Shown: piece after piece, positions 7,418-28,153 of the stretch
How positions within the stretch are numbered: position 1 is the stretch's first letter
Layout of the letters: each line of letters opens with the position of its first letter
Origin: a virus
Taxonomy: Duplodnaviria; Heunggongvirae; Uroviricota; Caudoviricetes
Virus record (IMG/VR): IMGVR_UViG_2537561688_000008
Length of the DNA stretch: 30,766 nt
Strand: one strand, 5' to 3'
The notes under the pieces: generated by a model
Told to the model about the DNA's origin: nothing
What the model saw: only the letters and a program-made list of their open reading frames with translations
Databases searched by the model: none
Made by a program: the position numbers and the translations under genes

Positions 7418-8483
7418 ATGCGCCAGGAAACCCGCTTTAAATTTAATGCCTACCTGTCCCGTGTTGCCGAACTGAACGGCATCGACGCCGGTGATGTGTC
7501 GAAAAAATTCACCGTTGAACCGTCGGTCACCCAGACCCTGATGAACACCATGCAGGAGTCCTCTGACTTTCTGACCCGCATCAACATTGTGCCGGTCAGC
7601 GAAATGAAAGGGGAAAAAATTGGTATCGGTGTCACCGGCTCCATCGCCAGCACCACCGACACCGCCGGTGGCACCGAGCGTCAGCCGAAGGACTTCTCGA
7701 AGCTGGCGTCTAACAAGTACGAATGCGACCAGATTAACTTCGATTTTTATATCCGCTACAAAACGCTTGACCTGTGGGCGCGTTATCAGGATTTCCAGCT
7801 CCGTATCCGTAACGCCATTATCAAACGCCAGTCCCTTGATTTCATCATGGCCGGTTTTAACGGCGTGAAGCGTGCCGAAACCTCTGACCGCAGCAGCAAT
7901 CCGATGCTACAGGATGTGGCGGTCGGCTGGCTGCAGAAATACCGCAATGAAGCCCCGGCGCGCGTGATGAGCAAGGTACTGACGAGGAAGGCACACGACC
8001 TCTGAGGTCATCCGCGTGGGTAAGGGCGGTGATTATGCCAGCCTCGATGCACTGGTGATGGATGCGACCAACAACCTGATTGAGCCGTGGTATCAGGAAG
8101 ACCCTGACCTTGTGGTGATTGTGGGGCGTCAGCTACTGGCGGACAAGTATTTCCCCATCGTAACAAGGAGCAGGACAACAGCGAGATGCTGGCCGCTGAC
8201 GTATCATCAGCCAGAAACGCATCGGAACCTGCCGGCGTCGCGTCCCGTACTTCCCGGCGATGCGATGCTCATCACGAAGCTGGAAAACCTGTCCATCTAC
8301 TACATGGATGACAGCCATCGCCGCGTGATTGAGGAAAACCCGAAACTCGACCGCGTGGAGAACTACGAGTCAATGAATATTGATTACGTGGTGGAAGACT
8401 ACGCCGCCGGTTGCCTGGTGGAAAAAATTAAGGTCGGTGATTTCTCCACACCGGCTAAAGCGACCGCAGAGCCGGGAGCGTAA
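7418..8483 (+). pseudogene. N: major capsid protein (P2 gpN-like) with interrupted reading frame
   Basis: N-terminal 195 aa (MRQETRFKFNAYLSRVAELNG...) end at a stop at 8005; the rest resumes in another frame at 8016. Span 7418-8483 is not a multiple of 3. A short internal stretch of the second ORF also reads out of frame against my recollection of gpN. Confidence 0.7.
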
Positions 8484-8486
8484 CCG

Positions 8487-9227
8487 ATGACGAGTCCCGC
8501 ACAGCGTCACATGATGCGGGTCTCGGCAGCGATGACCGCGCAGCGGGAAGCCGCCCCGCTGCGACATGCAACTGTCTATGAGCAGATGCTGGTCAAGCTG
8601 GCCGCAGACCAGCGCACACTGAAAGCGATTTATTCAAAAGAGCTGAAGGCCGCGAAAAAACGCGAACTGCTGCCGTTCTGGTTGCCGTGGGTGAACGGCG
8701 TGCTGGAGCAGGGCAAAGGTGCACAGGATGACATTCTGATGACGGTCATGCTGTGGCGTCTGGATACCGGCGATATTGCCGGTGCGCTGGAGATTGCCCG
8801 TTATGCCCTGAAGTACGGTCTGACCATGCCGGGGAAACACCGCCGCACCCCGCCGTACATGTTCACCGAGGAGGTGGCGCTGCGGCCATGCGGCTCACGC
8901 TGCCGGTGAATCGTGGATCCCCGCCTGCTGACGGACACCCTTGAACTGACTGCCACGGCAGACATGCCTGATGAAGTGCGCGCAAAGCTGCACAAAATCA
9001 CCGGTCTGTTTCTGCGTGACACTGGTGATGCCGCAGGTGCGCTGGCGCACCTGCAACGTGCGACACAGCTCGACTGTCAGGCAGGCGTCAAAAAAGAGAT
9101 TGAACGACTGGAGCGGGAGCTGAAACCGAAGCCGGAGCCGCAACCCAAAGCGGCCACCCGTGCCACGCGTAAGACCCGGAGTGCGACACCGGCAAAACGT
9201 GGACGCCCGAAAAAGAAAACCAGTTAA
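8487..9227 (+). pseudogene. M: terminase small subunit (P2 gpM-like) interrupted by an in-frame stop
   Basis: Two ORFs in the same frame (8487-8909 and 8913-9227) separated by TGA; residues just before the stop do not read like the flanking conserved sequence, suggesting compensating single-base indels. Confidence 0.65.
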
Positions 9228-9326
9228 CAACCGAATGCGCCCCGCGCCAGGGCGGCACGCCGGTCAGTGAGGGTGAATCACCTGACACTGCACCGGCGTC
9301 CACCGCCCGACTTTTCTGAGGTAGTC

Positions 9327-9834
9327 ATGATGACGCTGATTATTCCGCGAAAGGAGGCTCCCGTGTCCGGTGAGGGTACGGTGGTCATCCCGCAACCGGC
9401 AGGCGACGAGCCGGTGATTAAAAACACGTTCTTTTTTCCCGATATCGACCCGAAGCGCGTCCGGGAACGTATGCGCCTTGAGCAGACCGTCGCCCCTGCC
9501 CGTCTGCGTGAGGCCATCAAGTCAGGCATGGCGAACGAATGCGGAGCTGTACGAGTACCGCGAACAGAAAATTGCCGCCGGTTTTACGCGTCTGGCGGAC
9601 GTCCCGGCGGACGATATCGACGGTGAAAGCATCAAGGTTTTTTACTACGAGCGCGCCGTGTGTGCGATGGCGACCGCGTCGCTTTATGAGCGTTATCGCG
9701 GCGTGGATGCCAGTGCGAAAGGCGACAAGAAGGCCGACAGCATTGACAGCACCATTGATGAACTGTGGCGGGATATGCGCTGGGCGGTGGCGCGCATCCA
9801 GGACAAGCCGCGCTGCATCGTGAGTCAAATCTGA
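9327..9834 (+). pseudogene. L: head completion protein (P2 gpL-like) with frameshift
   Basis: MMTLIIPRKEAPVSGEG... begins inside ORF 9267-9626; the recognisable C-terminal half (...YEYREQKIAAGFTRLADVP...VSQI) is in a different frame (ORF 9478-9834). Confidence 0.6.
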
Positions 9835-10037
9835 TGAAGACCTTTGCGCTACAGGGCGACACGCTCGACGCCATTTGTGTCCGGTATTACGGGCGCACTG
9901 AGGGCGTGGTTGAGACCGTGCTCGCCGCAAATCCGGGACTGGCTGAACTGGGTGCGGTGCTGCCACACGGCACCGCCGTCGAACTGCCCGACGTTCAGAC
10001 CGCGCCCGTGGCTGAAACTGTCAATCTGTGGGAGTAA
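9834..10037 (+). CDS. X: tail protein X (P2 gpX-like)
   Basis: 67-aa ORF MKTFALQGDTLDAICVRYYGRTEG... starting at an ATG inside track ORF 9765-10037; correct position between L and the lysis genes. Confidence 0.8.
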   Translation: MKTFALQGDTLDAICVRYYGRTEGVVETVLAANPGLAELGAVLPHGTAVELPDVQTAPVAETVNLWE

Positions 10038-10040
10038 CGC

Positions 10041-10322
10041 ATGACAGCAGAAGAAAAAAGCGTCCTGTCGCTTTTCATGATTGGGGTGCTGATTGTTGTC
10101 GGCAAGGTGCTTGCCGGTGGTGAACCCATCACCCCGCGTCTGTTTATCGGACGCATGTTGCTCGGTGGTTTTGTCTCGATGGTTGCCGGTGTTGTTCTGG
10201 TGCAGTTTCCTGACCTGTCACTGCCTGCGGTGTGCGGCATCGGCTCCATGCTGGGTATCGCCGGTTATCAGGTGATTGAGATTGCCATTCAGCGCCGCTT
10301 TAAGGGCAGGGGGAAACCGTAA
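10041..10322 (+). CDS. Y: holin (P2 gpY-like)
   Basis: 93-aa protein with hydrophobic membrane segments and a basic C-terminus (RRFKGRGKP); first gene of the lysis cassette. Confidence 0.85.
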   Translation: MTAEEKSVLSLFMIGVLIVVGKVLAGGEPITPRLFIGRMLLGGFVSMVAGVVLVQFPDLSLPAVCGIGSMLGIAGYQVIEIAIQRRFKGRGKP

Positions 10323-10819
10323 TGCCGGTAATTAACACGCATCAGAATATCGCCGCCTTTCTCGACATGCTGGCGGTGTCCGAAGGGACGGCGAACCATC
10401 CGCTGACGAAAAACCGGGGATATGACGTGATAGTCACCGGACTGGACGGGAAGCCGGAAATTTTCACCGACTACAGTGACCACCCGTTCGCGCATGGCCG
10501 ACCGGCGAAGGTGTTTAACCGTCGCGGTGAAAAATCCACGGCTTCCGGTCGCTATCAGCAGCTTTACCTGTTCTGGCCGCATTACCGCAAACAGCTTGCC
10601 CTGCCGGATTTCAGTCCGTTGTCACAGGACAGACTCGCCATTCAGTTGATCCGCGAACGCGGTGCACTGGATGACATCCGGGCGGGACGCATTGAGCGCG
10701 CCATTTCACGCTGTCGCAATATCTGGGCGTCCCTGCCGGGTGCCGGTTACGGTCAGCGTGAGCATTCACTGGAAAAACTGGTCACCGTCTGGCGTACCGC
10801 TGGCGGCGTACCGGCTTAA
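10322..10819 (+). CDS. K: endolysin / phage lysozyme (P2 gpK-like)
   Basis: 165-aa ORF directly after the holin; matches P2 gpK in length and sequence as recalled. Confidence 0.85.
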   Translation: MPVINTHQNIAAFLDMLAVSEGTANHPLTKNRGYDVIVTGLDGKPEIFTDYSDHPFAHGRPAKVFNRRGEKSTASGRYQQLYLFWPHYRKQLALPDFSPLSQDRLAIQLIRERGALDDIRAGRIERAISRCRNIWASLPGAGYGQREHSLEKLVTVWRTAGGVPA

Positions 10820-10833
10820 ACGGAGTAAACACC

Positions 10834-11259
10834 ATGAAGAAATTATCCCTTTCACTGATGCTGAACGTGTCGCTGGCGCTGATGCTGGCACTGTCCCTGA
10901 TTTACCCGCAGAGCGTGGCCGTCAGTTTTGTCGCCACCTGGGCGATTCTGGCGACGGTTATCTGTGTGGTTGCCGGTGGTGTCGGCGTGTATGCCACAGA
11001 GTATGTACTGGAACGCTACGGGCGGGAGCTGCCGCCGGAATCGCTGGCCGTGAAGATTGTCACGGCGCTGTTTTTGCAGCCGGTGCCGTGGCGCAGGCGG
11101 TCAGTGGCTCTGGTAGTGATGGTGGCGACGTTTATCTCGCTGGTCGCTGCCGGGTGGATTTTTACCGCGCTGATTTATCTCGTGGCATCGGTGTTCTTCC
11201 GGCTGATACGTACGGCCTGCTGTCAGCGTTTTGAGGGGCGGGAACCATGTCAAAGCTGA
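10834..11259 (+). CDS. lysA: lysis regulatory membrane protein LysA
   Basis: 141-aa strongly hydrophobic protein after K, the P2 lysA position. Confidence 0.75.
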   Translation: MKKLSLSLMLNVSLALMLALSLIYPQSVAVSFVATWAILATVICVVAGGVGVYATEYVLERYGRELPPESLAVKIVTALFLQPVPWRRRSVALVVMVATFISLVAAGWIFTALIYLVASVFFRLIRTACCQRFEGREPCQS

Positions 11260-11690
11260 TGATTGTGCTGGTTGTGTTGTTATCACTGGCGGTGGCCGGT
11301 CTGTTTCTGGTGAAACACAAAAATGCCAGCCTGCGCGCCTCGCTGGACAGGGCGAACAACGTCGCCAGCGGGCAGCAGACGACCATCACCATGCTGAAAA
11401 ATCAGCTTCATGTTGCCCTCACCAGGGCAGACAAAAACGAGCTGGCGCAGGTGGCACTGCGTCAGGAACTGGAAAACGCCGCGAAGCGTGAAGCTCAGCG
11501 CGAGAAAACCATCACGAGATTACTCAATGAAAACGAAGATTTCCGCCGCTGGTATGGTGCTGACCTGCCTGATGTTGTGCGCCGGTTGCACCAGCGCCCC
11601 GCCTGCACCGACGCCAGTGATTGTCCACAACGCCTGCCCGAAAGTGAGTCTTTGCCCGATGCCGGGCAGCGACCCAGAGACGAACGGTGA
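11247..11690 (+). CDS. lysB: LysB (i-spanin-like lysis protein)
   Basis: 147-aa ORF with an N-terminal membrane anchor (MSKLMIVLVVLLSLAVAGLFLV) and a charged helical region; overlaps lysA end. Confidence 0.75.
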   Translation: MSKLMIVLVVLLSLAVAGLFLVKHKNASLRASLDRANNVASGQQTTITMLKNQLHVALTRADKNELAQVALRQELENAAKREAQREKTITRLLNENEDFRRWYGADLPDVVRRLHQRPACTDASDCPQRLPESESLPDAGQRPRDER

Positions 11691-11817
11691 TTTAAGTGCC
11701 GATATCCGGCAGCTTGAGAACGCGCTGGCGCGCTGTGCCAGCCAGGTAAAAATGATTAAACACTGTCAGGACGAAAACGATGCTCAAACCCGACAGCCTG
11801 CGCAGGGCGCTGACTGA
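11527..11817 (+). CDS. lysC: LysC (o-spanin-like lipoprotein), embedded in the +1 frame of lysB
   Basis: ATG at 11527 inside track ORF 11410-11817 gives 96 aa starting MKTKISAAGMVLTCLMLCAGC, a signal peptide with a lipobox-like cysteine; the embedded arrangement is typical of spanin pairs. Confidence 0.6.
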   Translation: MKTKISAAGMVLTCLMLCAGCTSAPPAPTPVIVHNACPKVSLCPMPGSDPETNGDLSADIRQLENALARCASQVKMIKHCQDENDAQTRQPAQGAD

Positions 11818-12247
11818 TGCCGTCACGGTGCTGAAAACCAGTCCAGATATGCTGCGGATATTCGTGGATCACGGGAGTATTGCCTCCACGCTGGCGGCGT
11901 CGTTGTCATTCGAAAAGCGTTACACGCTCAATGTCATTGTGACCGACTTTACCGGTGATTTTGACCTGCTCATCGTGCCGGTGCTGGCGTGGCTGCGGGT
12001 AAATCAGCCCGACATCATGACCACCGACGCAGGTCAGAAAAAGGGCTTCACGTTTTATGCAGACATCAACAATGACAGCAGCTTTGATATCAGCATCAGC
12101 CTGATGCTGACCGAGCGAACGCTGGTCAGTGAGGTGGACGGCGCACTGCATGTGAAGAATATCCCGGAACCTCCGCCGCCGGAGCCGGTCACCCGCCCGG
12201 TGGAGCTTTATATCAATGGCGAACTGGTGAGCAAGTGGGATGAATGA
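11780..12247 (+). CDS. R: tail completion protein (P2 gpR-like)
   Basis: 155-aa ORF in the expected position and of the expected length. Confidence 0.85.
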   Translation: MLKPDSLRRALTDAVTVLKTSPDMLRIFVDHGSIASTLAASLSFEKRYTLNVIVTDFTGDFDLLIVPVLAWLRVNQPDIMTTDAGQKKGFTFYADINNDSSFDISISLMLTERTLVSEVDGALHVKNIPEPPPPEPVTRPVELYINGELVSKWDE

Positions 12248-12692
12248 GTTTAAGCGTTTTGAAGACCGGCTGACCGGACTGATTGAGTCGCTGTCACCGT
12301 CAGGGCGTCGGCGACTGAGTGCCGAACTGGCGAAACGTCTGCGGCAGAGTCAGCAGCGCCGGGTGATGGCACAGAAAGCCCCGGATGGCACACCCTATGC
12401 GCCACGCCAGCAGCAGAGCGCCAGAAAAAAGACCGGTCGCGTTAAGCGAAAAATGTTTGCGAAACTTATCACCAGTCGTTTTTTGCATATCCGCGCCAGC
12501 CCGGAACAGGCATCAATGGAATTTTACGGCGGGAAGTCACCGAAAATAGCCAGTGTGCATCAGTTCGGTCTGTCGGAAGAAACCCGGAAAGACGGTAAGA
12601 AAATTGATTATCCGGCGCGTCCTCTGCTCGGCTTTACCGGTGAGGATGTGCAGATGATTGAAGAGATTATCCTGGCTCACCTCGACCGTTAG
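12240..12692 (+). CDS. S: tail completion protein (P2 gpS-like)
   Basis: 150-aa ORF overlapping the R stop, as in P2. Confidence 0.85.
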   Translation: MNEFKRFEDRLTGLIESLSPSGRRRLSAELAKRLRQSQQRRVMAQKAPDGTPYAPRQQQSARKKTGRVKRKMFAKLITSRFLHIRASPEQASMEFYGGKSPKIASVHQFGLSEETRKDGKKIDYPARPLLGFTGEDVQMIEEIILAHLDR

Positions 12693-12758
12693 TTGTGCCA
12701 TTCCCGACACCTCATCGTTACATTGCCGCCGGTATGACCCGGCGGCATCCTTCCCGTT

Positions 12759-13394
12759 ATGAACACTCTCGCAAATATCCAGGAACTCGCGCGCGCACTG
12801 CGCAACATGATCCGCACCGGCCTTGTCGTCGAAACCAACCTTAAAGCCGGTCGCTGCCGTGTGCAGACCGGCGGCATGTGCACCGACTGGCTTCAGTGGC
12901 TGACACATCGTGCCGGGCGTTCGCGCACATGGTGGGCACCTTCCGTGGGGGAGCAGGTGCTGATTCTGGCCGTGGGCGGTGAACTTGACACGGCGTTCGT
13001 TCTGCCGGGGATTTATTCCGGCGATAACCCCGCGCCGTCTGCGTCGTCTGATGCCCTGCATATCCGTTTCCCTGACGGGGCGGTGATTGAATATGAACCT
13101 GAAACCAGTGCACTCACGGTAAGCGGAATTAAAACGGCCAGCGTGACGGCTTCTGATTCTGTTACTGCCACGGTGCCGGTGGTCATGGTGAAAGCATCAA
13201 CCCGCGTTACCCTGGACACACCGGAGGTGGTCTGCACCAACAGGCTGATTACCGGCACGCTGGAAGTGCAGAAGGGCGGGACGATGCGCGGCAACATTGA
13301 ACACACCGGCGGTGAACTCTCATCAAACGGTAAGGTACTGCATACCCATAAACACCCCGGCGACAGCGGCGGCACAACCGGGAGCCCTCTATGA
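12759..13394 (+). CDS. V: baseplate spike / assembly protein (P2 gpV-like)
   Basis: 211-aa ORF, correct order and length. Confidence 0.85.
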   Translation: MNTLANIQELARALRNMIRTGLVVETNLKAGRCRVQTGGMCTDWLQWLTHRAGRSRTWWAPSVGEQVLILAVGGELDTAFVLPGIYSGDNPAPSASSDALHIRFPDGAVIEYEPETSALTVSGIKTASVTASDSVTATVPVVMVKASTRVTLDTPEVVCTNRLITGTLEVQKGGTMRGNIEHTGGELSSNGKVLHTHKHPGDSGGTTGSPL

Positions 13395-13738
13395 CAGCGC
13401 GTTATCTCGGAATGAATCGCAGTGATGGCCTGACTGTCACTGACCTTGAGCATATCAGCCAGAGTATCGGCGATATCCTGCGCACACCGGTCGGCTCACG
13501 GGTGATGCGTCGTGATTACGGCTCGTTGCTGGCGTCAATGATTGACCAGCCGCAGACCCCGGCGCTTGAGTTGCAGATTAAGGTCGCCTGTTACATGGCG
13601 GTGCTGAAATGGGAACCCCGCGTCACCCTGTCATCCGTCACCACTGAGCGCAGTTTTGACGGGCGAATGACAGTTACGTTAACCGGCCAGCACAACGACA
13701 CCGGCCAGCCACTTTCGTTAACCATCCCTGTGAGTTGA
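13391..13738 (+). CDS. W: baseplate wedge protein (P2 gpW-like)
   Basis: 115-aa ORF overlapping the V stop. Confidence 0.85.
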   Translation: MTARYLGMNRSDGLTVTDLEHISQSIGDILRTPVGSRVMRRDYGSLLASMIDQPQTPALELQIKVACYMAVLKWEPRVTLSSVTTERSFDGRMTVTLTGQHNDTGQPLSLTIPVS

Positions 13739-13742
13739 AACC

Positions 13743-14646
13743 ATGCCGATTATCGACCTGAACCAGCTACCCGCACCGGATGTGGTCGAGGAGCTGGACT
13801 TTGAAACCATTCTTGCCGAACGCAAGGCGACACTGATTTCCCTTTACCCGGAAGACCAGCAGGAGGCGGTCGCCCGTACCCTGACGCTGGAATCTGAGCC
13901 TCTCGCCAAACTGCTGGAGGAAAATGCTTATCGTGAGCTTATCTGGCGTCAGCGTGTGAATGAGGCCGCACGGGCGGTGATGCTGGCCTGTGCCGCCGGT
14001 AATGACCTTGATGTGATTGGTGCCAATTACAACACCACGCGCCTGACTATCACCCCGGCAGATGATTCGACCATTCCGCCGACACCGGCAGTGATGGAAT
14101 CTGACACCGATTATCGTCTGCGTATTCAGCAGGCGTTTGAGGGCTTAAGCGTCGCCGGGTCGGTGGGTGCTTATCAGTATCATGGTCGCAGTGCCGACGG
14201 GCGTGTCGCGGATATCTCTGTCACCAGTCCGTCTCCGGCCTGCGTCACCATCTCGTGCTGTCACGTGAAAATAACGGTGTGCATCCGAAGACTGCTGGCG
14301 GGTGCGTAACGCCCTTAATGGCGAGGACGTCAGGCCGGTGGCCGACCGCGTGACCGTGCAGTCTGCCGCCATTGTTGAATACCAGATAAACGCCACGCTT
14401 TACCTTTACCCTGGTCCCGAAAGTGAACCCATCCGCGCGGCCGCCGTGAAAAAACTGGAAGCATACATCACGGCACAGCACCGGCTGGGGCGCGACATCC
14501 GTCTGTCTGCCATTTATGCCGCTTTGCATGTGGAAGGTGTGCAGCGTGTCGAACTGGCTGCACCGCTGGCCGACATCGTGCTCAACAATACGCAGGCGTC
14601 TTTCTGTACCGAATACAGCGTCGTGACCGGAGGCTCGGATGAGTGA
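13743..14646 (+). pseudogene. J: baseplate protein (P2 gpJ-like) with frameshift
   Basis: Split into ORFs 13743-14309 and 14302-14646 in different frames; the end of the first ORF (...CVTISCCHVKITVCIRRLLAGA) reads as out-of-frame sequence. Confidence 0.65.
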
Positions 14647-15169
14647 TTCGCGACTGCTGCCGACCGGCTCATCACCGCTTGAAGTCGCCGCCGCAAAAGC
14701 CTGTGCGGAAATTGAAAAAACGCCGGTCAGTATTCGTGAGCTGTGGAACCCGGATACCTGTCCGGCAAATCTGCTGCCGTGGCTGGCGTGGGCGTTTTCG
14801 GTCGACAGGTGGGATGAGAAGTGGCCGGAAGCGACAAAACGCGCCGTTATCCGCGATGCGTATTTCATCCACTGTCATAAAGGCACTATAGGTGCAATCC
14901 GGCGTGTGGTGGAGCCGCTCGGCTATCTCATCAACGTGACGGAGTGGTGGGAAAACAGTGACCCGCCCGGCACCTTCCGGCTTGATATTGGTGTACTGGA
15001 AAGTGGCATCACAGAGGCAATGTATCAGGAAATGGAACGGCTGATTGCTGATGCCAAACCTGCAAGCCGCCACCTTATTGGTCTGAACATTACCCGGGAC
15101 ATTCCCGGCTACCTGTTCGCCGGTGGTGTGGCTTACGACGGCGATGTAATTACGGTTTACCCCGGATAA
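14639..15169 (+). CDS. I: baseplate protein (P2 gpI-like)
   Basis: 176-aa ORF overlapping the J stop. Confidence 0.85.
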   Translation: MSDSRLLPTGSSPLEVAAAKACAEIEKTPVSIRELWNPDTCPANLLPWLAWAFSVDRWDEKWPEATKRAVIRDAYFIHCHKGTIGAIRRVVEPLGYLINVTEWWENSDPPGTFRLDIGVLESGITEAMYQEMERLIADAKPASRHLIGLNITRDIPGYLFAGGVAYDGDVITVYPG

Positions 15170-15179
15170 GTGAGGAATA

Positions 15180-17474: not shown

Positions 17475-17477
17475 TTT

Positions 17478-18005
17478 ATGCAGCATTTGATAAATATAAC
17501 GGTGGGTAATCCAAAAACGGTTGAACAATATCAATTGACAAAGGACTTTGATGTTGTCTGGTTTTTTTCAGAAGATGGTAAGAACTGGTACGAAGAACAA
17601 AAGTATTTTGCTGATGACACGATAAAAATAGCGTACGACAAAGATAATATTATCCGCTATGTGGAAAAGGATGTGACAGCTATCAGACCAGATGGATTAA
17701 GTGTGGTTGAAGTGGCGGATATTACTGCTAACCGACGGGCGGACATTTCAGGGAACTGGATGTTTAAGGACGGCAAAGTGATTAAACGCATTTATACGGC
17801 AGATGAATTGCAGCAGCAGGCAGAAAACCGGAAAGCCAGACTTCTTGCAGATGCTGAATCCGTGATTTTGCCACTGGAGCGCGCTGTCAGGCTGAACATG
17901 GCAACAGATGAGGAGCGTAGCCGACTGGAAGCATGGGAACGCTACAGTGTTCTGGTCAGCCGTGTGGATCCTGCAAATCCTGAATGGCCGGAAATGCCGC
18001 AATAA
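17478..18005 (+). CDS. G: tail fiber assembly chaperone (P2 gpG-like)
   Basis: 175-aa ORF directly after H, as in P2. Confidence 0.85.
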
Positions 18006-18480
18006 GTTGTATAAGCTCTGGTGTGAGATTACATATCTATGGCACAGAGTAAAGCCTAATCTGACAGTCCGCTCTGTGCCAAGAGCGGACGTTACTACTA
18101 CTCGACCTAAAGTAAAGCAATTGTACTCATTAAATAGTGGTAATTGGGTCTGGTGCTTAATCGAACGAAATCTCATGTTAGGCGAAAAAAACGTCTGAAA
18201 AATCGATTAACACATACACCTGTGTACTATGGCCGTTATTCAATTTAAAAGGAACCATTTCCGATATGATTCACTGTCCATAATGTTTTGATTTATTAAA
18301 AAAGAGCCTTAGAGTGTGAAACCATTACGTTGAGTGGCGAACACCATTAATAAATTCTGCTTATACTTACAGCATATATTATGTTCACGTCATATAACCA
18401 TGGCAAATAAGATATTGCACATCAAGCATGATTATGATAGTGATTACAAAAATGAAGAATCTTAGATAAAGGATTAGTAA

Positions 18481-19416: not shown

Positions 19417-19693
19417 TACTTTTTTCTTAAGGGCTGCACTCATGGCCCTTAACACCGTTAGACTGTCATATTTTGCAATCGATACGCAGTTAGGTACTTT
19501 CTTGAAGTCCGTTCCTCGCTCATAGCTGACATTCAGCTCAATTAACTCGTCCACTTCGCTCCAACAGAAGGCGTAGCTAATCATACTGTGTATTAAAGAA
19601 AGGAGAAACGATCATGTTGAGTACAAAAAACACGAAAGACCATGATAAGGAAAATATGCGTAGAGTGACTTAGTTTATTGATTTAAATAATAT

Positions 19694-19870
19694 TTATGGG
19701 GGTAAGTGCTTTGAATAAAAAAACAAAAATTGAGAAGATTTAGCTAGTGCCAAAATAATTTGGACACCGCCCGTCATCAGACCCGCTACTACACTTATCA
19801 CCCCAGCCCAAAAAGTTTCAATGAAACAAGATACATATAGTAGTACTACATGGCGGAATAATTTACTCAT
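19694..19870 (-). CDS. Small hydrophobic (probable membrane) protein, 58 aa
   Basis: Minus-strand ATG at 19870 preceded by TAAGGAG with a 6-nt spacer. Product MSKLFRHVVLLYVSCFIETFWAGVISVVAGLMTGGVQIILALAKSSQFLFFYSKHLPP has a clear transmembrane-like segment. The ORF could extend upstream to 19999 (101 aa), but that start has no RBS. Confidence 0.45.
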   Translation of the reverse strand: MSKLFRHVVLLYVSCFIETFWAGVISVVAGLMTGGVQIILALAKSSQFLFFYSKHLPP

Positions 19871-20200
19871 AGGCTTCTCCTTACTGACGTAATCGTTAAG
19901 TAACACGTTGAGGTAACGGATAAATGCGACTATTGGGAGAGCTGTGATGAGAATTGTAGGCATAGGAATCGAACCTATGGATGCACTAGCTAAATTCACT
20001 CTTCACGAATTATACAGCATTGTAGTGAGTTTGTAAATACACGCCCCAAAAGTCAATCAGTCCGCTCCATGAATGTTGTGTCAGTACTACTAAAGTTAAA
20101 CATGCTAAAATAGGTTCCCAATATTCGTGGGTACAATCACTATCTGTGTAACTGGCGGAAGCGCTGGCATAACGACGATGCCTATTCGGGGGGCTTTAAT

Positions 20201-21067
20201 ATGGTCCGTTTTAACTTACTAGAAAATGCGTTGGATTCAGTGGAAACCGGGCTGGACTACTTTAACAAAGCGCTAGAAGGGCATGATCGACGTGACTACA
20301 AACAGTGCCTGCTTAACCTCTTTCAGGCCGCTGAGCTATTGTTGAAGGCCGTAGTTTCGCGCAATGGGTCTGGAGCGATTTTTAATCCAGCATCGCTTCA
20401 AGAAAAATGTGTGGATCCGGCGCATCCAACCGAGTCAGAATTACACCAGTGTAAATCTGTCAACGTCAACCAGCTTTGTAAGCTGTTAAAGACATATTAC
20501 CCAGCCGAATTTTCTGAATCTGCATTACAAATGATGAAAACGGTGGGTCAGTTGCGTAATAACCTTCAGCATTTTGCCCTTGAGGTTCGTCCGCAAGAAC
20601 TGGCAATGCAACTGAGTGAACTGTACCAACAAATTTTTCGTCCCGCATTCGTCATAATTCAGTCAGATGAGACCGAAAATTCATGGAACTCTGATTTACG
20701 TCAAGACATCATCGCTCTTGAGCAACAATTCCTTGATATAACTGTTAACCAGGAATACACCCTTGCACTTTGTCCCGTTTGTGAGAGTTTTTCACATTTT
20801 ATCCTTTACCAAAGTGAAAGCTTTCCGGCACGGACTCACTGTATCTGTTGTGGTTTCAGCCTGAATAATCTGCAAACTTGGGATTTTCAGGAATGTCCTG
20901 AATGTAGTGTCCCATCCGTAATTTATTTACCGGAACAAAGGGTCGGTGTCTGTCTCTGGTATAAATGTGAATACAGCAAGATGGATGGTTTTGTTCCTAT
21001 GGAGCCTTGTGAATGTGGTGCATTCCGGATGGAAGGTCATTGCAGTAACTGCGATCTTGAGGAATAG
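20201..21067 (+). CDS. Hypothetical protein with N-terminal HEPN-like helical domain (Rx4H motif) and C-terminal cysteine-rich (multi-CxxC) zinc-ribbon-like region (cargo island 2)
   Basis: Intact 288-aa ORF. Helical N-terminal part contains LRNNLQHF (R-x4-H). The C-terminal ~110 aa carry paired cysteines (CPVC, CICC, CPEC, C-x-C, CSNC). AT-rich. Confidence 0.65.
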   Translation: MVRFNLLENALDSVETGLDYFNKALEGHDRRDYKQCLLNLFQAAELLLKAVVSRNGSGAIFNPASLQEKCVDPAHPTESELHQCKSVNVNQLCKLLKTYYPAEFSESALQMMKTVGQLRNNLQHFALEVRPQELAMQLSELYQQIFRPAFVIIQSDETENSWNSDLRQDIIALEQQFLDITVNQEYTLALCPVCESFSHFILYQSESFPARTHCICCGFSLNNLQTWDFQECPECSVPSVIYLPEQRVGVCLWYKCEYSKMDGFVPMEPCECGAFRMEGHCSNCDLEE

Positions 21068-21430
21068 TAAAATCGTCCGATGAGAATGTACAGCAGCCTG
21101 GTCGATGATTTCTTGATGAATCGCTGAATTATCCGGTATTACTTGACAACTAAATCGCACATTTCTGTTTCTGGCAATTTGAAAGGTTTACTCTATGCCC
21201 CAGAATTCAGCACATACATAAAAACACCATTTCAGAACGCGTCTTGATCCAAAGAACGACTGTATGATAGATAGGCGTCGTCGTGAGGACAGGAATGATC
21301 TACCCCCCGTTATTCATACAGAATGCTGTTAGTAATGTCCGCAGATCGCTCAAAGCAGACTGTCAGATTTGATAGCGTTTGGGCTATGTAAGTAGCCAGT
21401 TGGAGAATGAGTGAGTGCAAATCAGGACTG

Positions 21431-21460
21431 GCGGGCGAATTGCCCGCATTTTCTTTATCT
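21431..21460 (+). terminator. Rho-independent terminator between cargo island 2 and the FI operon
   Basis: GCGGGC-gaatt-GCCCGC stem-loop followed by attttctttatct (T-rich). Confidence 0.5.
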
Positions 21461-21552
21461 GTTGTTTCATCCACTGACCAGCCAGGTCAAATAGCGTCTC
21501 ATGCACTGCCCAACAGAAAATAGTTGCACCCATTAACCACGGAGTTAAACGG

Positions 21553-22743
21553 ATGAGTGACTATCATCACGGCGTGCAGGTGCTGGAGATTAACGACGGC
21601 ACCCGCGTCATTTCCACTGTATCCACTGCCATTGTCGGCATGGTCTGCACGGCCAGCGATGCGGATGCGGAAACCTTCCCCCTCAATAAACCTGTGCTGA
21701 TTACCAATGTGCAGAGCGCAATTGCAAAGGCCGGTAAAAAAGGCACGCTGGCGGCATCGTTGCAGGCCATCGCTGACCAGTCAAAACCGGTCACCGTTGT
21801 CGTGCGCGTGGAAGACGGCACCGGCGACGACGAAGAAACGAAACTTGCGCAGACCGTTTCCAATATCATCGGCACCACCGACGAAAACGGTCAGTACACC
21901 GGACTGAAAGCCCTGCTGGCGGCGGAGTCAGTAACCGGTGTTAAACCGCGTATTCTCGGCGTGCCGGGACTGGACACCAAAGAGGTGGCTGTTGCACTGG
22001 CATCAGTCTGTCAGAAGCTGCGCGCTTTCGGGTATATCAGCGCATGGGGCTGTAAAACCATTTCCGAGGTGAAAGCCTACCGCCAGAATTTCAGCCAGCG
22101 TGAGCTGATGGTCATCTGGCCGGATTTCCTCGCATGGGATACGGTCAGCAGCACCACCGCCACCGCGTATGCCACCGCCCGTGCGCTGGGGCTGCGTGCT
22201 AAAATCGACCAGGAGCAGGGCTGGCATAAAACGTTGTCCAACGTCGGGGTAAATGGTGTTACCGGCATCAGCGCATCTGTATTCTGGGATTTGCAGGAGT
22301 TCGGCACCGATGCTGACCTGCTTAACGAGTCAGGCGTCACTACGCTGATTCGCCGCGACGGTTTCCGCTTCTGGGGTAACCGTACCTGCTCTGATGACCC
22401 GCTGTTCCTCTTTGAAAACTATACCCGCACCGCGCAGGTGCTGGCCGACACGATGGCTGAGGCGCACATGTGGGCGGTGGACAAGCCCATCACCGCAACG
22501 CTGATTCGCGACATCGTTGACGGCATCAATGCCAAATTCGTGAGCTGAAAACAAACGGCTATATCGTGGATGCGACCTGCTGGTTCAGCGAAGAATCCAA
22601 CGATGCGGAAACCCTCAAGGCCGGAAAACTGTATATCGACTACGACTATACACCGGTGCCTCCTCTTGAAAACCTGACCCTGCGCCAGCGTATTACCGAT
22701 AAATACCTGGCAAATCTGGTCACTTCGGTTAACAGCAATTAAG
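21553..22743 (+). pseudogene. FI: tail sheath protein (P2 gpFI-like) with C-terminal frameshift
   Basis: 331-aa ORF (21553-22548) is followed without a gap by a second frame encoding ...ELKTNGYIVDATCWFSEESNDAETLKAGKLYIDYDYTPVPP... up to 22743; the combined span matches a ~396-aa sheath protein. Confidence 0.7.
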
Positions 22744-22754
22744 GAGCCTGACCG

Positions 22755-23273
22755 ATGGCAATGCCGCGCAAACTCAAGTTAATGAACGTCTTTCTGAACG
22801 GCTACAGCTATCAGGGCGTTGCAAAGTCCGTCACGCTGCCAAAACTGACCCGTAAGCTCGAAAACTATCGCGGTGCGGGGATGAACGGCAGCGCACCGGT
22901 AGACCTCGGCCTTGATGACGATGCGCTGTCAATGGAGTGGTCGCTCGGTGGCTTCCCGGATTCGGTTATCTGGGAGCTTTACGCCGCAACCGGCGTGGAT
23001 GCCGTCCCGATTCGTTTTGCAGGCTCTTACCAGCGTGACGATACCGGCGAAACGGTGGCCGTCGAGGTGGTCATGCGTGGACGTCAGAAAGAAATCGACA
23101 CCGGCGAGGGTAAACAGGGAGAAGACACCGAGTCGAAAATCTCCGTGGTCTGCACCTCTTTCCGGCTGACGATGGACGGTAAGGAGCTGGTCGAAATCGA
23201 CACCATCAACATGATTGAGAAGGTGAACGGCGTCGACCGGCTGGAGCAACACCGCCGCAATATCGGCCTGTGA
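22755..23273 (+). CDS. FII: tail tube protein (P2 gpFII-like)
   Basis: 172-aa ORF directly after the sheath gene. Confidence 0.85.
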   Translation: MAMPRKLKLMNVFLNGYSYQGVAKSVTLPKLTRKLENYRGAGMNGSAPVDLGLDDDALSMEWSLGGFPDSVIWELYAATGVDAVPIRFAGSYQRDDTGETVAVEVVMRGRQKEIDTGEGKQGEDTESKISVVCTSFRLTMDGKELVEIDTINMIEKVNGVDRLEQHRRNIGL

Positions 23274-23329
23274 TTTTCATCCGGTCAGCCAGGCTGACCG
23301 GTTAACCCCGATTCAGAAGTGAGAAAACC

Positions 23330-23605
23330 ATGGACAAAGAAAATGTCATTACCCTGGAAAATCCGGTCAAACGTGGTGAGCAGGTCATCGAACAGGTCAC
23401 GCTGATGAAACCCAATGCCGGGACGCTGCGCGGTGTCAGTCTGGCAGCGGTCGCAAACTCCGAAGTCGATGCACTGATTAAGGTGCTGCCGCGCATGACT
23501 GCACCGATGCTGACCGAGCAGGAAGTCGCCGCACTGGAACTGCCTGACCTTGTGGCGCTGGCCGGTAAGGTGGTCGGTTTTTTGTCGCCGAACTCGGTGC
23601 AGTGA
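23330..23605 (+). CDS. E: tail assembly chaperone (P2 gpE-like)
   Basis: 91-aa ORF upstream of the tape measure gene. Confidence 0.8.
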   Translation: MDKENVITLENPVKRGEQVIEQVTLMKPNAGTLRGVSLAAVANSEVDALIKVLPRMTAPMLTEQEVAALELPDLVALAGKVVGFLSPNSVQ

Positions 23606-23757
23606 CGTTCCCGAAAAATCTGTCGGTCGATGACCTGATGGCGGATGTGGCAGTGATATTTCACTGGCCGCCATCAGAACTGTATCCCATGAGCCTGACC
23701 GAACTCATCACATGGCGCGAAAAGGCGCTCCGGCGAAGCGGAAACACGAATGAGTAA
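23330..23757 (+). CDS. E': E+E' frameshift-extended tail chaperone (programmed -1 frameshift)
   Basis: A run of six T followed by G (23578-23584) lies 6 codons before the E stop. The -1 frame stays open from there to TAA at 23755-23757, overlapping the start of T. This mirrors the conserved chaperone frameshift upstream of tape measure genes. Confidence 0.55.
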
Positions 23758-26197
23758 CAATGTAAAATTACAGGTATTGCTCAGGGCTGTTGACCAGGCA
23801 TCCCGCCCGTTTAAATCCATCCGCACAGCGAGCAAATCGCTGTCGGGGGATATCCGGGAAACACAAAAATCACTGCGCGAGCTGAACGGTCACGCATCCC
23901 GTATTGAGGGATTTCGCAAGACCAGTGCACAGCTCGCCGTGACTGGTCATGCACTTGAAAAGGCACGGCAGGAGGCCGAAGCCCTTGCCACACAGTTTAA
24001 AAACACCGAACGTCCGACACGTGCTCAGGCGAAAGTGCTGGAATCCGCGAAGCGTGCGGCGGAGGACTTACAGGCGAAATATAACCGCCTGACGGATTCC
24101 GTTAAACGCCAGCAGCGGGAACTGGCCGTTGTGGGAATTAATACCCGCAATCTTGCACATGATGAGCAGGGGCTGAAAAACCGTATCAGTGAAACCACCG
24201 CACAGCTTAACCGTCAGCGCGACGCACTGGCGCGTGTCAGTGCACAACAGGCAAAACTTAACGCAGTCAAACAGCGTTATCAGGCCGGAAAGGAACTGGC
24301 CGGAAATATGGCCTCAGTGGGCGCTGCCGGTGTGGGGATTGCTGCTGCGGGAACGATGGTCGGTGTTAAGCTGCTGATGCCCGGTTATGAGTTTGCGCAG
24401 AAAAACTCAGAATTGCAGGCCGTGCTCGGTGTGGCAAAAGACTCCGCCGAAATGGCCGCGCTCCGCAAGCAGGCGCGCCAGCTCGGCGACAATACCGCAG
24501 CCTCGGCAGATGATGCAGCCGGTGCTCAGATTATTATTGCGAAAGCCGGTGGGGATGTTGATGCCATTCAGGCGGCAACGCCGGTCACGTTGAACATGGC
24601 GCTGGCGAACCGTCGCACGATGGAAGAAAACGCCGCCCTGCTGATGGGGATGAAATCCGCCTTTCAGCTTTCAAACGATAAGGTCGCTCATATCGGGGAT
24701 GTTCTCTCCATGACGATGAACAAAACCGCCGCCGATTTTGACGGCATGAGCGATGCGCTGACCTATGCCGCACCTGTGGCAAAAAATGCCGGTGTCAGCA
24801 TTGAAGAAACCGCCGCAATGGTCGGGGCGCTGCATGATGCAAAAATCACAGGCTCAATGGCGGGGACGGGAAGCCGTGCCGTGTTAAGCCGCCTGCAGGC
24901 ACCGACGGGAAAAGCATGGGATGCACTCAAAGAGCTTGGAGTGAAAACCTCAGACAGCAAGGGAAACACCCGGCCAATATTTACCATTCTGAAAGAAATG
25001 CAGGCCAGTTTTGAGAAAAACCGGCTCGGTACTGCCCAGCAGGCTGAATACATGAAAACCATTTTCGGGGAGGAGGCCAGCTCAGCCGCCGCTGTGCTGA
25101 TGACTGCCGCCTCAACCGGAAAGCTGGACAAACTGACCGCTGCGTTTAAAGCCTCAGACGGGAAGACCGCAGAGCTGGTAAATATCATGCAGGACAACCT
25201 CGGCGGTGACTTTAAGGAGTTTCAGTCCGCTTATGAGGCGGTGGGGACTGACCTGTTTGACCAGCAGGAAGGCGCACTGCGTAATCTCACGCAGACGGCC
25301 ACAAAGTATGTGTTAAAACTCGACGGCTGGATCCAGAAAAACAAATCACTGGCGTCAACCATCGGCATCATTGTCGGTGGTGCACTGGCACTGATTGGTG
25401 TCATCGGTGCCATTGGCCTCGTAGCCTGGCCGGTTATCACCGGCATCAATGCCATCATCGCGGCAGCAGGCGCAATGGGGGCAGTCTTCACGACGGTTGG
25501 CAGTGCTGTTATGACCGCCATCGGGGCGATTAGCTGGCCGGTTGTGGCCGTGGTGGCCGCCATTGTCGCCGGGGCGTTGCTTATCCGTAAATACTGGGAG
25601 CCTGTCAGCGCATTCTTTGGCGGTGTGGTGGAAGGGCTGAAAGCGGCATTTGCGCCGGTGGGGGAACTATTCACGCCACTTAAGCTGGTGTTCGACTGGC
25701 TGGGCGAAAAGTTACAGGCCGCGTGGCAGTGGTTTAAAAACCTGATTGCCCCGGTCAAAGCCACCCAGGACACCCTGAACCGTTGCCGTGACACGGGCGT
25801 CATGTTCGGGCAGGCACTGGCTGACGCGCTGATGCTGCCGCTTAATGCGTTCAACAAACTGCGCAGTGGTATTGACTGGGTACTGGAAAAACTCGGCGTC
25901 ATCAACAAAGAGTCAGGCACGCTTGACCAGACCGCCGCCAGAACTCATGCCGCCACGTATGGCACCGGTGGTTATATTCCGGCGACCAGCTCTTATGCAG
26001 GTTATCAGGCTTATCAGCCGGTCACGGCACCGGCTGGCCGCTCTTATGTAGACCAGAGTAAAAACGAATATCACATCAGCCTGACGGGTGGTACTGCGCC
26101 GGGGACACAGCTCGACCGCCAGTTACAGGATGCACTCGAAAAATACGAGCGGGATAAACGTGCGCGCGCCCGTGCCAGCATGATGCATGACGGTTAA
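23750..26197 (+). CDS. T: tail tape measure protein (P2 gpT-like)
   Basis: 815-aa ORF with a coiled-coil N-terminus and Gly/Ala-rich hydrophobic segments; correct position. Confidence 0.9.
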   Translation: MSNNVKLQVLLRAVDQASRPFKSIRTASKSLSGDIRETQKSLRELNGHASRIEGFRKTSAQLAVTGHALEKARQEAEALATQFKNTERPTRAQAKVLESAKRAAEDLQAKYNRLTDSVKRQQRELAVVGINTRNLAHDEQGLKNRISETTAQLNRQRDALARVSAQQAKLNAVKQRYQAGKELAGNMASVGAAGVGIAAAGTMVGVKLLMPGYEFAQKNSELQAVLGVAKDSAEMAALRKQARQLGDNTAASADDAAGAQIIIAKAGGDVDAIQAATPVTLNMALANRRTMEENAALLMGMKSAFQLSNDKVAHIGDVLSMTMNKTAADFDGMSDALTYAAPVAKNAGVSIEETAAMVGALHDAKITGSMAGTGSRAVLSRLQAPTGKAWDALKELGVKTSDSKGNTRPIFTILKEMQASFEKNRLGTAQQAEYMKTIFGEEASSAAAVLMTAASTGKLDKLTAAFKASDGKTAELVNIMQDNLGGDFKEFQSAYEAVGTDLFDQQEGALRNLTQTATKYVLKLDGWIQKNKSLASTIGIIVGGALALIGVIGAIGLVAWPVITGINAIIAAAGAMGAVFTTVGSAVMTAIGAISWPVVAVVAAIVAGALLIRKYWEPVSAFFGGVVEGLKAAFAPVGELFTPLKLVFDWLGEKLQAAWQWFKNLIAPVKATQDTLNRCRDTGVMFGQALADALMLPLNAFNKLRSGIDWVLEKLGVINKESGTLDQTAARTHAATYGTGGYIPATSSYAGYQAYQPVTAPAGRSYVDQSKNEYHISLTGGTAPGTQLDRQLQDALEKYERDKRARARASMMHDG

Positions 26198-26211
26198 GGA
26201 GGTGACGAAAA

Positions 26212-26691
26212 ATGATGCTCGCGTTAGGTATGTTTGTTTTTATGCGCCAGACGCTGCCACACCAGACCATGCAGCGTGAATCAGATTATCGCTGGCCGTC
26301 AAATTCCCGTATCGGTAAACGGGACGCTTTTCAGTTTCTCGGTGTGGGTGAGGAAAACATCACGCTTGCCGGTGTGCTTTATCCCGAACTGACCGGCGGC
26401 AAGCTGACGATGACCACGCTCAGGCTGATGGCAGAGGAGGGGCGGGCGTGGCCGTTGCTGGATGGCACCGGCATGATTTACGGCATGTATGTCATCAGCA
26501 GGGTGAGTGAAACAGGGAGTATTTTCTTTGCAGACGGCACACCCCGGAAAATTGATTTTACGCTGTCGCTTACCCGCGTTGATGAATCACTGGCCGCGCT
26601 TTATGGCGATATCGGTAAACAGGCGGAATCGCTCATCGGTAAGGCTGGCAGTATGGCGACTAAATTCACGGGTATGACGGGGGCGGGATAA
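26212..26691 (+). CDS. U: tail protein (P2 gpU-like)
   Basis: 159-aa ORF after T. Confidence 0.85.
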   Translation: MMLALGMFVFMRQTLPHQTMQRESDYRWPSNSRIGKRDAFQFLGVGEENITLAGVLYPELTGGKLTMTTLRLMAEEGRAWPLLDGTGMIYGMYVISRVSETGSIFFADGTPRKIDFTLSLTRVDESLAALYGDIGKQAESLIGKAGSMATKFTGMTGAG

Positions 26692-27854
26692 TGCTGGATG
26701 CACTGACATTTGATGCAGGCAGTACGCTGACGCCGGATTACATGCTGATGCTCGACAGCAGGGATATTACCGGCAATATCAGCGACCGTCTGATGAGCAT
26801 GACCCTGACGGATAACCGGGGCTTTGAGGCTGACCAGCTTGATATTGAACTGAACGATGCCGACGGGCAGGTCGGGCTGCCGATTCGTGGCGCTGTCCTG
26901 ACGGTGTATATCGGCTGGAAAGGTTTTGCCCTGGTATGCAAAGGGAAATTTACCGTTGATGAGGTTGAACACCGGGGCGCGCCGGATGTGGTTACCATCC
27001 GCGCCCGGAGTGCAGATTTCCGCGGGACGCTTAATTCCCGCCGGGAAGGCTCCTGGCATGACACCACACTCGGTGCGATTGTTGAGGCGATAGCCTGTCG
27101 TAACAAGCTGGAAGCCAGTGTCGCTCCGTCACTGGCCGGAATTAAAATCCCGCACATCGACCAGTCGCAGGAGTCTGATGCGAAATTCCTGATCCGTCTT
27201 GCTGAACGCAACGGCGGTGAGGTGTCGGTAAAAATGGGAAAACTGTTGTTTCTTAAGGCGGGGCAGGGGGTGACGGCCAGTGGTAAAAAAATCCCGCAGA
27301 TTACCATCACCCGCAGCGACGGCGACCGTCATCATTTTGCGATTGCTGACCGTGGAGCCTACACCGGTGTAACGGCAAAATGGCTACACACCAAAGACCC
27401 GAAGCCTCAAAAGCAGAAGGTAAAACTGAAACGCAAAAAGAAAGAGAAACACCTGCGCGCACTGGAGCACCCGAAAGCGAAACCGGTCAGGCAGAAGAAA
27501 GCGCCTAAAGTACCGGAAGCGCGTGAAGGTGAATACATGGCCGGTGAGGCTGACAACGTTTTTGCCCTGACCACGGTATATGCCACGAAAGCACAGGCCA
27601 TGCGTGCCGCTCAGGCGAAGTGGGATAAGCTGCAACGGGGTGTAGCGGAGTTCTCCATCAGCCTGGCTACTGGTCGGGCAGATATTTACACGGAAACACC
27701 GGTTAAAGTGTCAGGCTTTAAGCGCGTCATAGACGAGCAGGACTGGACAATCACTAAGGTGACACATTTTCTGAATAACAGCGGCTTCACGACGTCCCTG
27801 GAGCTTGAGGTCAGGCTTTCTGATGTGAAGTACGAAACAGAAGATGATGAGTGA
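26691..27854 (+). CDS. D: tail protein (P2 gpD-like)
   Basis: 387-aa ORF overlapping the U stop. Confidence 0.85.
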   Translation: MLDALTFDAGSTLTPDYMLMLDSRDITGNISDRLMSMTLTDNRGFEADQLDIELNDADGQVGLPIRGAVLTVYIGWKGFALVCKGKFTVDEVEHRGAPDVVTIRARSADFRGTLNSRREGSWHDTTLGAIVEAIACRNKLEASVAPSLAGIKIPHIDQSQESDAKFLIRLAERNGGEVSVKMGKLLFLKAGQGVTASGKKIPQITITRSDGDRHHFAIADRGAYTGVTAKWLHTKDPKPQKQKVKLKRKKKEKHLRALEHPKAKPVRQKKAPKVPEAREGEYMAGEADNVFALTTVYATKAQAMRAAQAKWDKLQRGVAEFSISLATGRADIYTETPVKVSGFKRVIDEQDWTITKVTHFLNNSGFTTSLELEVRLSDVKYETEDDE

Positions 27855-27935
27855 TGTTTTTATTTTATCTGTTTGTTTTATAAGGTTAAATTAACTAAAA
27901 TGGCACCATCAACAAAACCGGAAGAGGTGCTCGCG

Positions 27936-28153
27936 ATGTTTCATTGTCCTTTATGCCAGCATGCCGCACATGCGCGTACAAGTCGCTATATCACTGACAC
28001 GACAAAAGAGCGTTATCACCAGTGCAGAACGTGAATTGCAGCGCCACGTTCATCACTTATGAGTCGGTACAGCGATACATCGTGAAGCCGGGAGAAGTCC
28101 ACGCTGTAAGACCGCACCCGTTGCCGTCAGGGCAGCAAATTATGTGGATGTGA
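27936..28153 (+). pseudogene. ogr: late transcription activator Ogr (zinc-finger), frameshifted
   Basis: ATG at 27936 with GAAGAGG upstream encodes MFHCPLCQHAAHARTSRYITDTTKERYHQC, then stops after two more codons (28032-28034). The remainder (...NVNCSATFITYESVQRYIVKPGEVHAVRPHPLPSGQQIMWM) continues in the +1 frame to 28153. Confidence 0.65.

Follow-up and report, generated by a model that had tools for sequence, protein, structure and literature searches.

The DNA analysed here (30,766 nt; referred to below as the window) corresponds in full to draft contig AQBX01000080.1 from assembly GCA_000358635.2. Based on nucleotide identity and synteny, most of it represents the right-hand part of a P2-like (Peduovirus) prophage, followed by host sequence (Table 1). 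P2, fiAA91-ss, P37 and other phages are 95-96% identical to the window over 77-83% of the query, and annotated references together with Pfam calls recover the P2 late-gene order: Q-P / O-N-M-L-X-Y-K-lysABC-R-S-V-W-J-I-H-G-(island)-FI-FII-E-E'-T-U-D-ogr. The closest complete prophage, that of ETEC 602354 (NZ_CP025847), aligns as one 28.3-kb HSP covering window positions 1-28243 (98.8% identity) and shares its gene order between A and ogr. It differs in that all of its late genes are intact and in its integration at yegQ; in the window, 44 single bases are missing, many stretches have the alleles of a second haplotype, and the junction is with fieF/pfkA. The ogr end of the prophage adjoins the host attachment site, with ogr followed by fieF and pfkA, and P2-like prophages adjacent to fieF/pfkA are present in 668 complete E. 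coli genomes.

Besides the phage genes, the prophage carries cargo: an ATPase gene and, at a second location, the two genes of island 2. The ATPase matches PADLOC PDC-S06 (E = 5e-254) and is a candidate single-gene defence system. The ETEC 602354 prophage has the same PDC-S06-type ATPase (100% identical) and both island-2 genes at 100% nucleotide identity, with zero differences in island 2. As described in the first-pass annotation, the ATPase gene, both island-2 genes, T, fieF and pfkA are uninterrupted, both in the ORF list and in the annotation.

Table 1. Features of the window. Haplotypes A and B are described in the text; deletions are relative to the ETEC 602354 prophage.
Feature	Position	Strand	Details
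P2-like (Peduovirus) prophage, right-hand ~28 kb, 3' end of gene A to ogr	1..28160	+	identity, synteny
Cargo gene 1, 738-aa AAA_13 ATPase	805..3021	-	haplotype A only, error-free, GC 0.295
N, major capsid	7418..8483	+	split 7418..8005 and 8016..8483
N deletions (ETEC 602354 alignment)	after 7976, 7991, 8161, 8202, 8225, 8236, 8238, 8258	+
M, terminase small subunit	8487..9227	+	split 8487..8909 and 8913..9227; deletions 8881, 8892, 8912
L, head completion	9327..9834	+	split 9327..9626 and 9508..9834; deletions 9532, 9533
J, baseplate	13743..14646	+	split 13743..14309 and 14338..14646; five deletions 14253-14300
H, tail fibre	15180..17474	+	split 15180..15602, 15654..15899 and 16140..17474; 24 deletions 15553-16055
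Island 2 (P2 Z/fun position), two cargo genes (311 aa, 288 aa)	18481..21067	+	haplotype A only, error-free
Island-2 genes	18481..19416 and 20201..21067		ORF list
FI, tail sheath	21553..22742	+	split 21553..22548 and 22566..22742; deletion 22536
Haplotype B segment (3' end of FI, FII, E, E', T, U, D, ogr)	22537..28160	+	non-ETEC allele at every variable site
T, tape measure	23750..26197	+	uninterrupted
ogr, late-gene activator	27936..28153	+	truncated at 28034; deletion 28024 (TGC/TGT Cys codon)
Host flank, intact fieF (28390-29292) and pfkA (29473-30435)	28244..30766	+	ORF list, annotation

Split or shifted frames had been noted in N, M, L, J, H, FI and ogr, and the ORF list and the NCBI gene calls on the contig agree that these, and no other phage genes, are split or truncated. 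Aligning the window to close relatives, as the first-pass annotation had suggested, locates 44 single-base deletions relative to ETEC 602354, all of them within these seven genes (base by base against NZ_CP025847: N, 8; M, 3; L, 2; J, 5; H, 24; FI, 1; ogr, 1). The grouping of several single-base differences within tens of bp, also noted earlier, is evident in the same alignment. When the 44 bases are refilled, the seven genes are full length and stop-free, with 98.9-100% amino acid identity to intact homologues. The repaired N product has 357 aa and is stop-free; those of M and J have 247 and 302 aa, respectively. Repaired L (169 aa) is 100% identical to the ETEC protein, repaired H (772 aa) differs from its ETEC counterpart at one residue, and repaired ogr (72 aa) is 100% identical to OgrK. 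The deletions in H are densest within an intragenic tandem repeat (132-bp x 3.5), and positions 15501-16000 have 1 mismatch vs 23 deletions in the ETEC 602354 alignment. The single deletion in FI is at a TTT/TTC wobble site, and the frameshifted FI product is found in a single contig of the public collection, the present one. At the deleted wobble site of ogr, a T allele is present in at least 120 viral contigs.

The indels inside the prophage are strikingly uniform: 44 of 44 are 1-bp deletions, with zero insertions, and the deletion clusters are nearly without substitutions. Alignments of complete P2-like genomes to the ETEC 602354 reference contain 554-589 mismatches and 0-4 deleted bases per ~20 kb. 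As aligned, 32 of the 44 deletions are at codon position 3 (3/3 in M), and this position can be reached by gap placement for 37 of 44 (vs 52.6% expected, p = 1.2e-5). Polymorphic sites, defined with a panel of five complete P2-like prophages, account for 35/44 deletions against a background of 6.8% (Fisher p = 8.9e-33); this overlap was scored from pairwise alignments and blastn maps, as MAFFT gaps were ambiguous near adjacent deletions and understated it. All five J deletions can be placed at panel-polymorphic sites. Seven of the 44 deleted sites are non-polymorphic in the small panel and the sibling drafts, several of them being alternative placements of a gap.

Four sibling drafts, AQCD, AQBY, AQCA and AQBT, have 83, 65, 4 and 74 deletions, respectively, and 0 insertions; coverage of the region is short in AQCA (also L011), which has the 4 deletions, and long in the other three. 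The deleted sites differ in part among the siblings, and a site that is lost in one draft is present as one of two alleles in another. Three drafts together have 94 sites at which one or more of them lost the base; 58 of these are discordant, with another draft having the reference or the alternative allele. For example, six of the eight N deletions appear in L011 as transitions relative to haplotype A, one of the two deleted sites in L has the alternative allele G in sibling L010, and J has 12 deletions in L010 and 20 in L009, at partly different sites. The eight N deletions recur in AQCD, AQBY and AQBT, and two of the eight in AQCA.

Across the five drafts, 555 of 556 variable sites are biallelic; among independent P2-like genomes, ~4% of the sites are multi-allelic. 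The two haplotypes, A and B, are ~97-98% identical in the structural genes, and the points at which the drafts switch from one to the other differ draft by draft. In the window, the deletion at FI 22536 is exactly at the switch from A to B, and sibling contig AQBT01000079 stops 51 nt past this site. A sibling contig with haplotype B, AQCA01000231, has its own distinct cargo (methylase and HATPase). Look-ups with the ATPase and island-2 proteins for the host flank of a sibling contig returned unrelated assemblies only. Exact haplotype B was present in no complete genome searched, the best match being 98.3%.

We propose, with a probability of about 0.92, that the frameshifts in the seven genes are a consensus artefact of a short-read draft assembly, generated by the collapse of two co-resident P2-like prophages, an interpretation based on sequence comparisons. 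The disruption of these genes is not a real biological feature, and it implies no new biology. The read set would have contained two P2-like templates, most likely two prophages of the same genome. Haplotype A would be the carrier of the PDC-S06 ATPase and island 2, resembling the ETEC 602354 prophage, which elsewhere is located at yegQ; haplotype B would reside at fieF/pfkA. Both templates may have been piled into one consensus, with a base lost at each column in which they differ: a mismatch could have been represented as two half-filled gap columns, and the gap would therefore win the vote. Wobble positions would accumulate runs of -1 deletions in this way, while sequence from one prophage only (cargo, host flank) would assemble cleanly. 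The cargo and host genes would thus owe their intact frames to their single-copy, unambiguous representation in the read set rather than to selection. The contig is also probably chimeric, passing from A to B within FI, as suggested by the allele switch at that point.

Consensus errors at collapsed repeats in overlap-layout-consensus drafts provide a close parallel. Such errors are confined to positions at which two near-identical copies differ, and they spare unique sequence; contigs end or change copy at the repeat borders, and independent assemblies of the same material disagree. Here, the errors fall on sites that distinguish the copies, and the siblings show the alternative allele at those sites; the two haplotypes underlie all sibling assemblies as differing mosaics; single-copy sequence is error-free; and the A to B switch and the end of the sibling contig are both at FI. 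The window departs from the usual pattern in that conflicts were resolved neither as an arbitrary base nor as an N, but always as a -1 deletion. Our assumption is that the present drafts may come from a Celera-assembled multi-colony ETEC study, and Celera Assembler would apply only in that case. A -1 deletion at each conflict is what a vote won by gaps would be predicted to leave. Multi-colony ETEC drafts assembled with Celera are described by Sahl et al. 2015 (PMC4462620). A literature search with the WGS accessions of the present drafts retrieved no publication.

An artefact of a different origin had been suggested by the first-pass annotation, namely base-calling errors accumulating in the GC-rich DNA of the phage. 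The data do point to an artefact of sequencing or assembly, but the proposed mechanism does not hold, as GC is equal, the sites are non-homopolymeric and they differ between haplotypes. Random chemistry errors dependent on homopolymers or GC would fit an artefact-type pattern in a draft assembly and the error-free state of the AT-rich cargo. Most deletions, however, are outside homopolymers in a non-repetitive context, which rules out a homopolymer-error (454, Ion or ONT-type) origin, and the error clusters, with a GC of 0.54-0.58, match the error-free genes T, D and P in this respect, which rules out a GC-dependent error. Random errors would also include insertions and substitutions, and are not expected to favour codon position 3 and polymorphic sites (80% vs 7% background); we regard this explanation as extremely unlikely. 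Stripping of IUPAC codes by a pipeline is ruled out by the NCBI gene calls, which show the same splits; the NCBI record and the window are equally long, and therefore ambiguity codes were not stripped after deposit. The two templates could instead have come from a mixed culture or from cross-contamination (two strains with one P2-like prophage each), given that the signature needs only two templates in the read set, and a second P2-like contig was not retrieved from GCA_000358635.2. This is very unlikely: the same two haplotypes occur in five separate draft assemblies, the haplotype B sibling contig has cargo of its own, and co-resident P2-like prophages at yegQ and at fieF are both frequently encountered in E. 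coli. Contamination would, moreover, add heterogeneity in host genes, but none is seen in fieF or pfkA.

The other first-pass proposal, that the prophage is defective and has been retained for the defence genes it carries, takes the frameshifts in the late genes and ogr as real and the cargo as preserved by selection (domestication). Seven essential late genes are disrupted next to intact cargo, P2 hotspots are known to harbour defence genes, the cargo has a PDC-S06 match, and the N deletions shared by three siblings recur as expected of inherited mutations. The lesions nevertheless argue against this proposal, which we judge highly improbable. They are -1 deletions at wobble (32-37/44) and population-polymorphic (35/44), synonymous sites, and the prophage has no nonsense mutations, IS elements or larger deletions. 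Decay under relaxed constraint would leave a mixed mutational spectrum; we found only -1 deletions, few substitutions in their vicinity and, after repair with 44 bases, no stops and proteins nearly or fully identical to intact homologues. Heritable lesions would be identical in clonal relatives, but the deletion sets differ among the five drafts, and deleted sites are plain SNPs elsewhere. Degraded P2-like prophages resemble the window in having P2-type late genes without full-length products, but their lesions are insertions of IS elements, large deletions and truncations with pseudogene annotations (e.g., M interrupted by IS21 in strain AVS0051), in contrast to dozens of synonymous-site -1 deletions. 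The ogrK/yegZ remnant at yegQ in K-12 is another P2-like prophage that is genuinely degraded. It is also unlikely, if somewhat less so, that part of the pattern is real, either as A/B mosaics produced by ongoing gene conversion between yegQ and fieF co-residents in one ETEC lineage, or as true lesions at FI 22536 and ogr 28024, in which case the fieF prophage would be truly ogr-defective.

If the collapse of two prophages is the correct explanation, the value of the result is practical only. This contig and its siblings would mislead attempts to score prophage intactness, to count pseudogenes or to infer 'domesticated prophages kept for defence cargo' from draft assemblies. The combination of exclusively -1 deletions, their position at wobble and polymorphic sites, the lack of substitutions and the differences between sibling assemblies provides a simple diagnostic of collapsed-repeat consensus errors that can be reused. 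The contig also probably assigns the PDC-S06 and island-2 cargo wrongly to the fieF/pfkA site. In 10 of 10 other assemblies listed, the prophage with island 2 is at yegQ, not fieF, and its J, H, FI and ogr genes are intact.

The window consists of a P2-like (Peduovirus) prophage and a host flank, and 7418-28153 shows 95-96% identity and full late-gene synteny with P2, fiAA91-ss, Yersinia phage P37 and others. An exact-protein look-up identified it as the complete 30,766-bp draft contig AQBX01000080.1 (assembly GCA_000358635.2); since the NCBI record has the same size, no bases were stripped after deposit. The nearest complete genome is that of ETEC strain 602354 (NZ_CP025847), whose prophage is integrated at yegQ, has all late genes intact and shares both the 738-aa ATPase and the two island-2 genes with the window. 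The element itself is a typical P2-like prophage with hotspot cargo. The ATPase hits PDC-S06, a single-gene defence candidate of PADLOC (E = 5e-254), with a weaker PrrC-like match in its C-terminal part (E = 1e-12), and the N-terminal ~140 aa of the 288-aa island-2 product match PDC-S64 (E = 4e-21); nothing in PADLOC matches the 311-aa product. The index of the public collection lists the exact ATPase protein in 183 blocks and the exact 288-aa protein in 467.

The ORF list and the NCBI gene calls bear out the first-pass annotation on which frames are disrupted (N, M, L, J, H, FI and ogr, and no other gene) and which are unbroken (the ATPase, island 2, T, fieF and pfkA). Alignment to close relatives, the check it had proposed, placed 44 indels inside the prophage, all within these seven genes (N 8, M 3, L 2, J 5, H 24, FI 1, ogr 1, relative to ETEC 602354); in blastn the window and the ETEC 602354 prophage form one HSP over 1-28243 with 279 mismatches and 52 gap columns. 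In the bin 28001-28250 there are 17 mismatches and 9 gap columns, one of the latter being the ogr deletion at 28024. The sharp divergence of the attR region from the yegQ-site reference is what one would expect of a different attachment site; it lies outside the deletion artefact.

All 44 indels are single-base deletions in the window, with no longer deletions and no insertions. Their clusters are nearly substitution-free (23 deletions vs. 1 mismatch in 15501-16000; 5 vs. 0 in 8001-8250), the opposite of the ratio in three complete P2-like genomes, which differ from ETEC 602354 by 0-4 deleted bases per ~20 kb and 554-589 substitutions. The majority are not in homopolymers. As aligned, 32 of the 44 fall at codon position 3, which is reachable for 37 when equivalent placements within base runs are allowed (vs. 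52.6% of random sites, p = 1.2e-5). The densest run falls within a tandem repeat in H, and differences between the repeat copies may add to consensus conflicts.

The deleted sites coincide with polymorphic sites, an overlap visible directly in the alignments. In a panel of five complete P2-like prophages (fiAA91-ss, S1-SRB-02-B, GZ2408C, Eco_23-3511 and AVS0051), alleles vary at 35 of the 44 deletion sites, compared with 6.8% of the background (Fisher p = 8.9e-33). The deletion in FI falls in a TTT/TTC codon and that in ogr in a TGC/TGT codon, the T allele of the latter being present in at least 120 viral contigs. Panel alleles, alleles of sibling drafts and differences between the H repeat copies together explain 37 deletions; several of the other seven are alternative gap placements.

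Four more drafts, with neighbouring accession numbers, contain the frameshifted N fragment and the C-terminal fragment of H, and the set of split genes differs in each. Relative to ETEC 602354, these drafts lack 83 (AQCD01000118), 65 (AQBY01000088), 4 (AQCA01000231) and 74 (AQBT01000079) bases and have no insertions, and their deletions likewise lie at polymorphic and wobble sites. The WGS prefixes of these drafts may belong to projects of the centre behind Sahl et al. 2015. The window and two sibling drafts (L009, L010) together have 94 deleted sites. All three lack the base at 36 of these; at the 58 discordant sites another draft carries either the reference allele or a single alternative. 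In the sibling L011, six of the eight N deletions appear as plain transitions. Of 556 variable sites in the five drafts, 555 are biallelic, whereas any four independent P2-like genomes have ~4% multi-allelic sites, so the drafts combine one pair of haplotypes in different mosaics. Haplotype A resembles ETEC 602354 and bears the ATPase and island 2. In L011 haplotype B is nearly pure, and it also forms the window from ~22.5 kb to ogr. The L011 element, with its methylase and HATPase_c_3 genes, is presumably the second resident P2-like prophage. Gene A of L011 is split too (371 + 385 aa).

Exactly at the FI deletion (22536), the window turns from 100% A to B alleles throughout. Across the whole public collection the frameshifted FI product is found on AQBX01000080.1 only, and the sibling contig AQBT01000079 stops 51 nt beyond this site. 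In all ten other assemblies shown, the island-2 prophage lies at yegQ-parDE-yegP with J, H, FI and ogr intact, and in none of the ten is it at fieF/pfkA; P2-like prophages at fieF/pfkA are common (668 complete genomes). The simplest reading, to which we give a probability of about 0.7, is that the strain has two resident prophages (A at yegQ, B at fieF) and that the contig, a probable chimera, crosses from one to the other via the shared FI sequence.

Coordinates of features in the window and related sequences (haplotypes A and B, two closely related P2-like prophage templates)
Feature	Sequence	Position	Strand	Description
Cargo ATPase	window	805-3021	-	738-aa AAA_13; AT-rich (GC 0.295); P2 hotspot between gene A and Q
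H tandem repeat	window	~15720-16160		132 bp (44 aa), 3.5 copies, 89% matches
H tandem repeat	L003	13029-13484		
Island 2	window	18481-21067		two genes; P2 Z/fun position, between G and FI
Probable join region in FI	window	~22500-22590		haplotype-A cargo to the left; haplotype-B right arm and fieF/pfkA flank to the right
attR region	window	28163-28243		right of ogr
Haplotype-B cargo	L011 (AQCA01000231.1, GCA_000359055.2)	2628-5677		same hotspot; DNA methylase and 652-aa HATPase_c_3 protein, beside near-pure haplotype-B late genes
Split gpM	L007 (E. coli AVS0051, NZ_CP124429)	3388-6711		IS21-family (ISEc12) insertion; P2-like prophage at fieF/pfkA

The deletions mark sites where two P2-like templates differ. 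Single-copy sequence is clean, and at the deletion sites independent assemblies vary between allele A, allele B and a gap. In the multi-alignment behind the consensus, a two-allele mismatch was probably set as two adjacent half-gap columns; the gap would have outvoted the base in both, and the base would have been dropped. Sahl et al. 2015 sequenced many ETEC colonies per patient by HiSeq and used Celera Assembler (PMC4462620). Refilling the 44 bases restores N (357 aa), M (247), L (169), J (302), H (772), FI (396) and Ogr (72) with no internal stops and 98.9-100% identity to the intact ETEC 602354 proteins, and there is no further inactivating lesion.

Real pseudogenisation of the seven genes fails on the type of lesion, the choice of sites, the discordance between siblings and this repairability, and the proposal of a defective prophage retained for its defence cargo is not supported. 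What real inactivation looks like is illustrated by the gpM insertion in AVS0051, unlike the single-base deletions of the window. The other proposal, base-calling errors in GC-rich DNA, was right that the lesions are artefactual and wrong about their origin: the clusters match the undamaged T, D and P genes in GC (0.54-0.58), and random or GC-dependent error also fails on site specificity and on the lack of insertions or substitutions. A mixed culture supplying both templates would leave an identical artefact, but it is less likely than two resident prophages, because one pair of haplotypes recurs in all five drafts, a separate contig joins haplotype B to a cargo of its own, and the host genes are free of such errors. 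The disruption of the seven genes is no biological feature; the result is a caution, and gives a signature by which collapsed-repeat errors can be diagnosed in draft assemblies.
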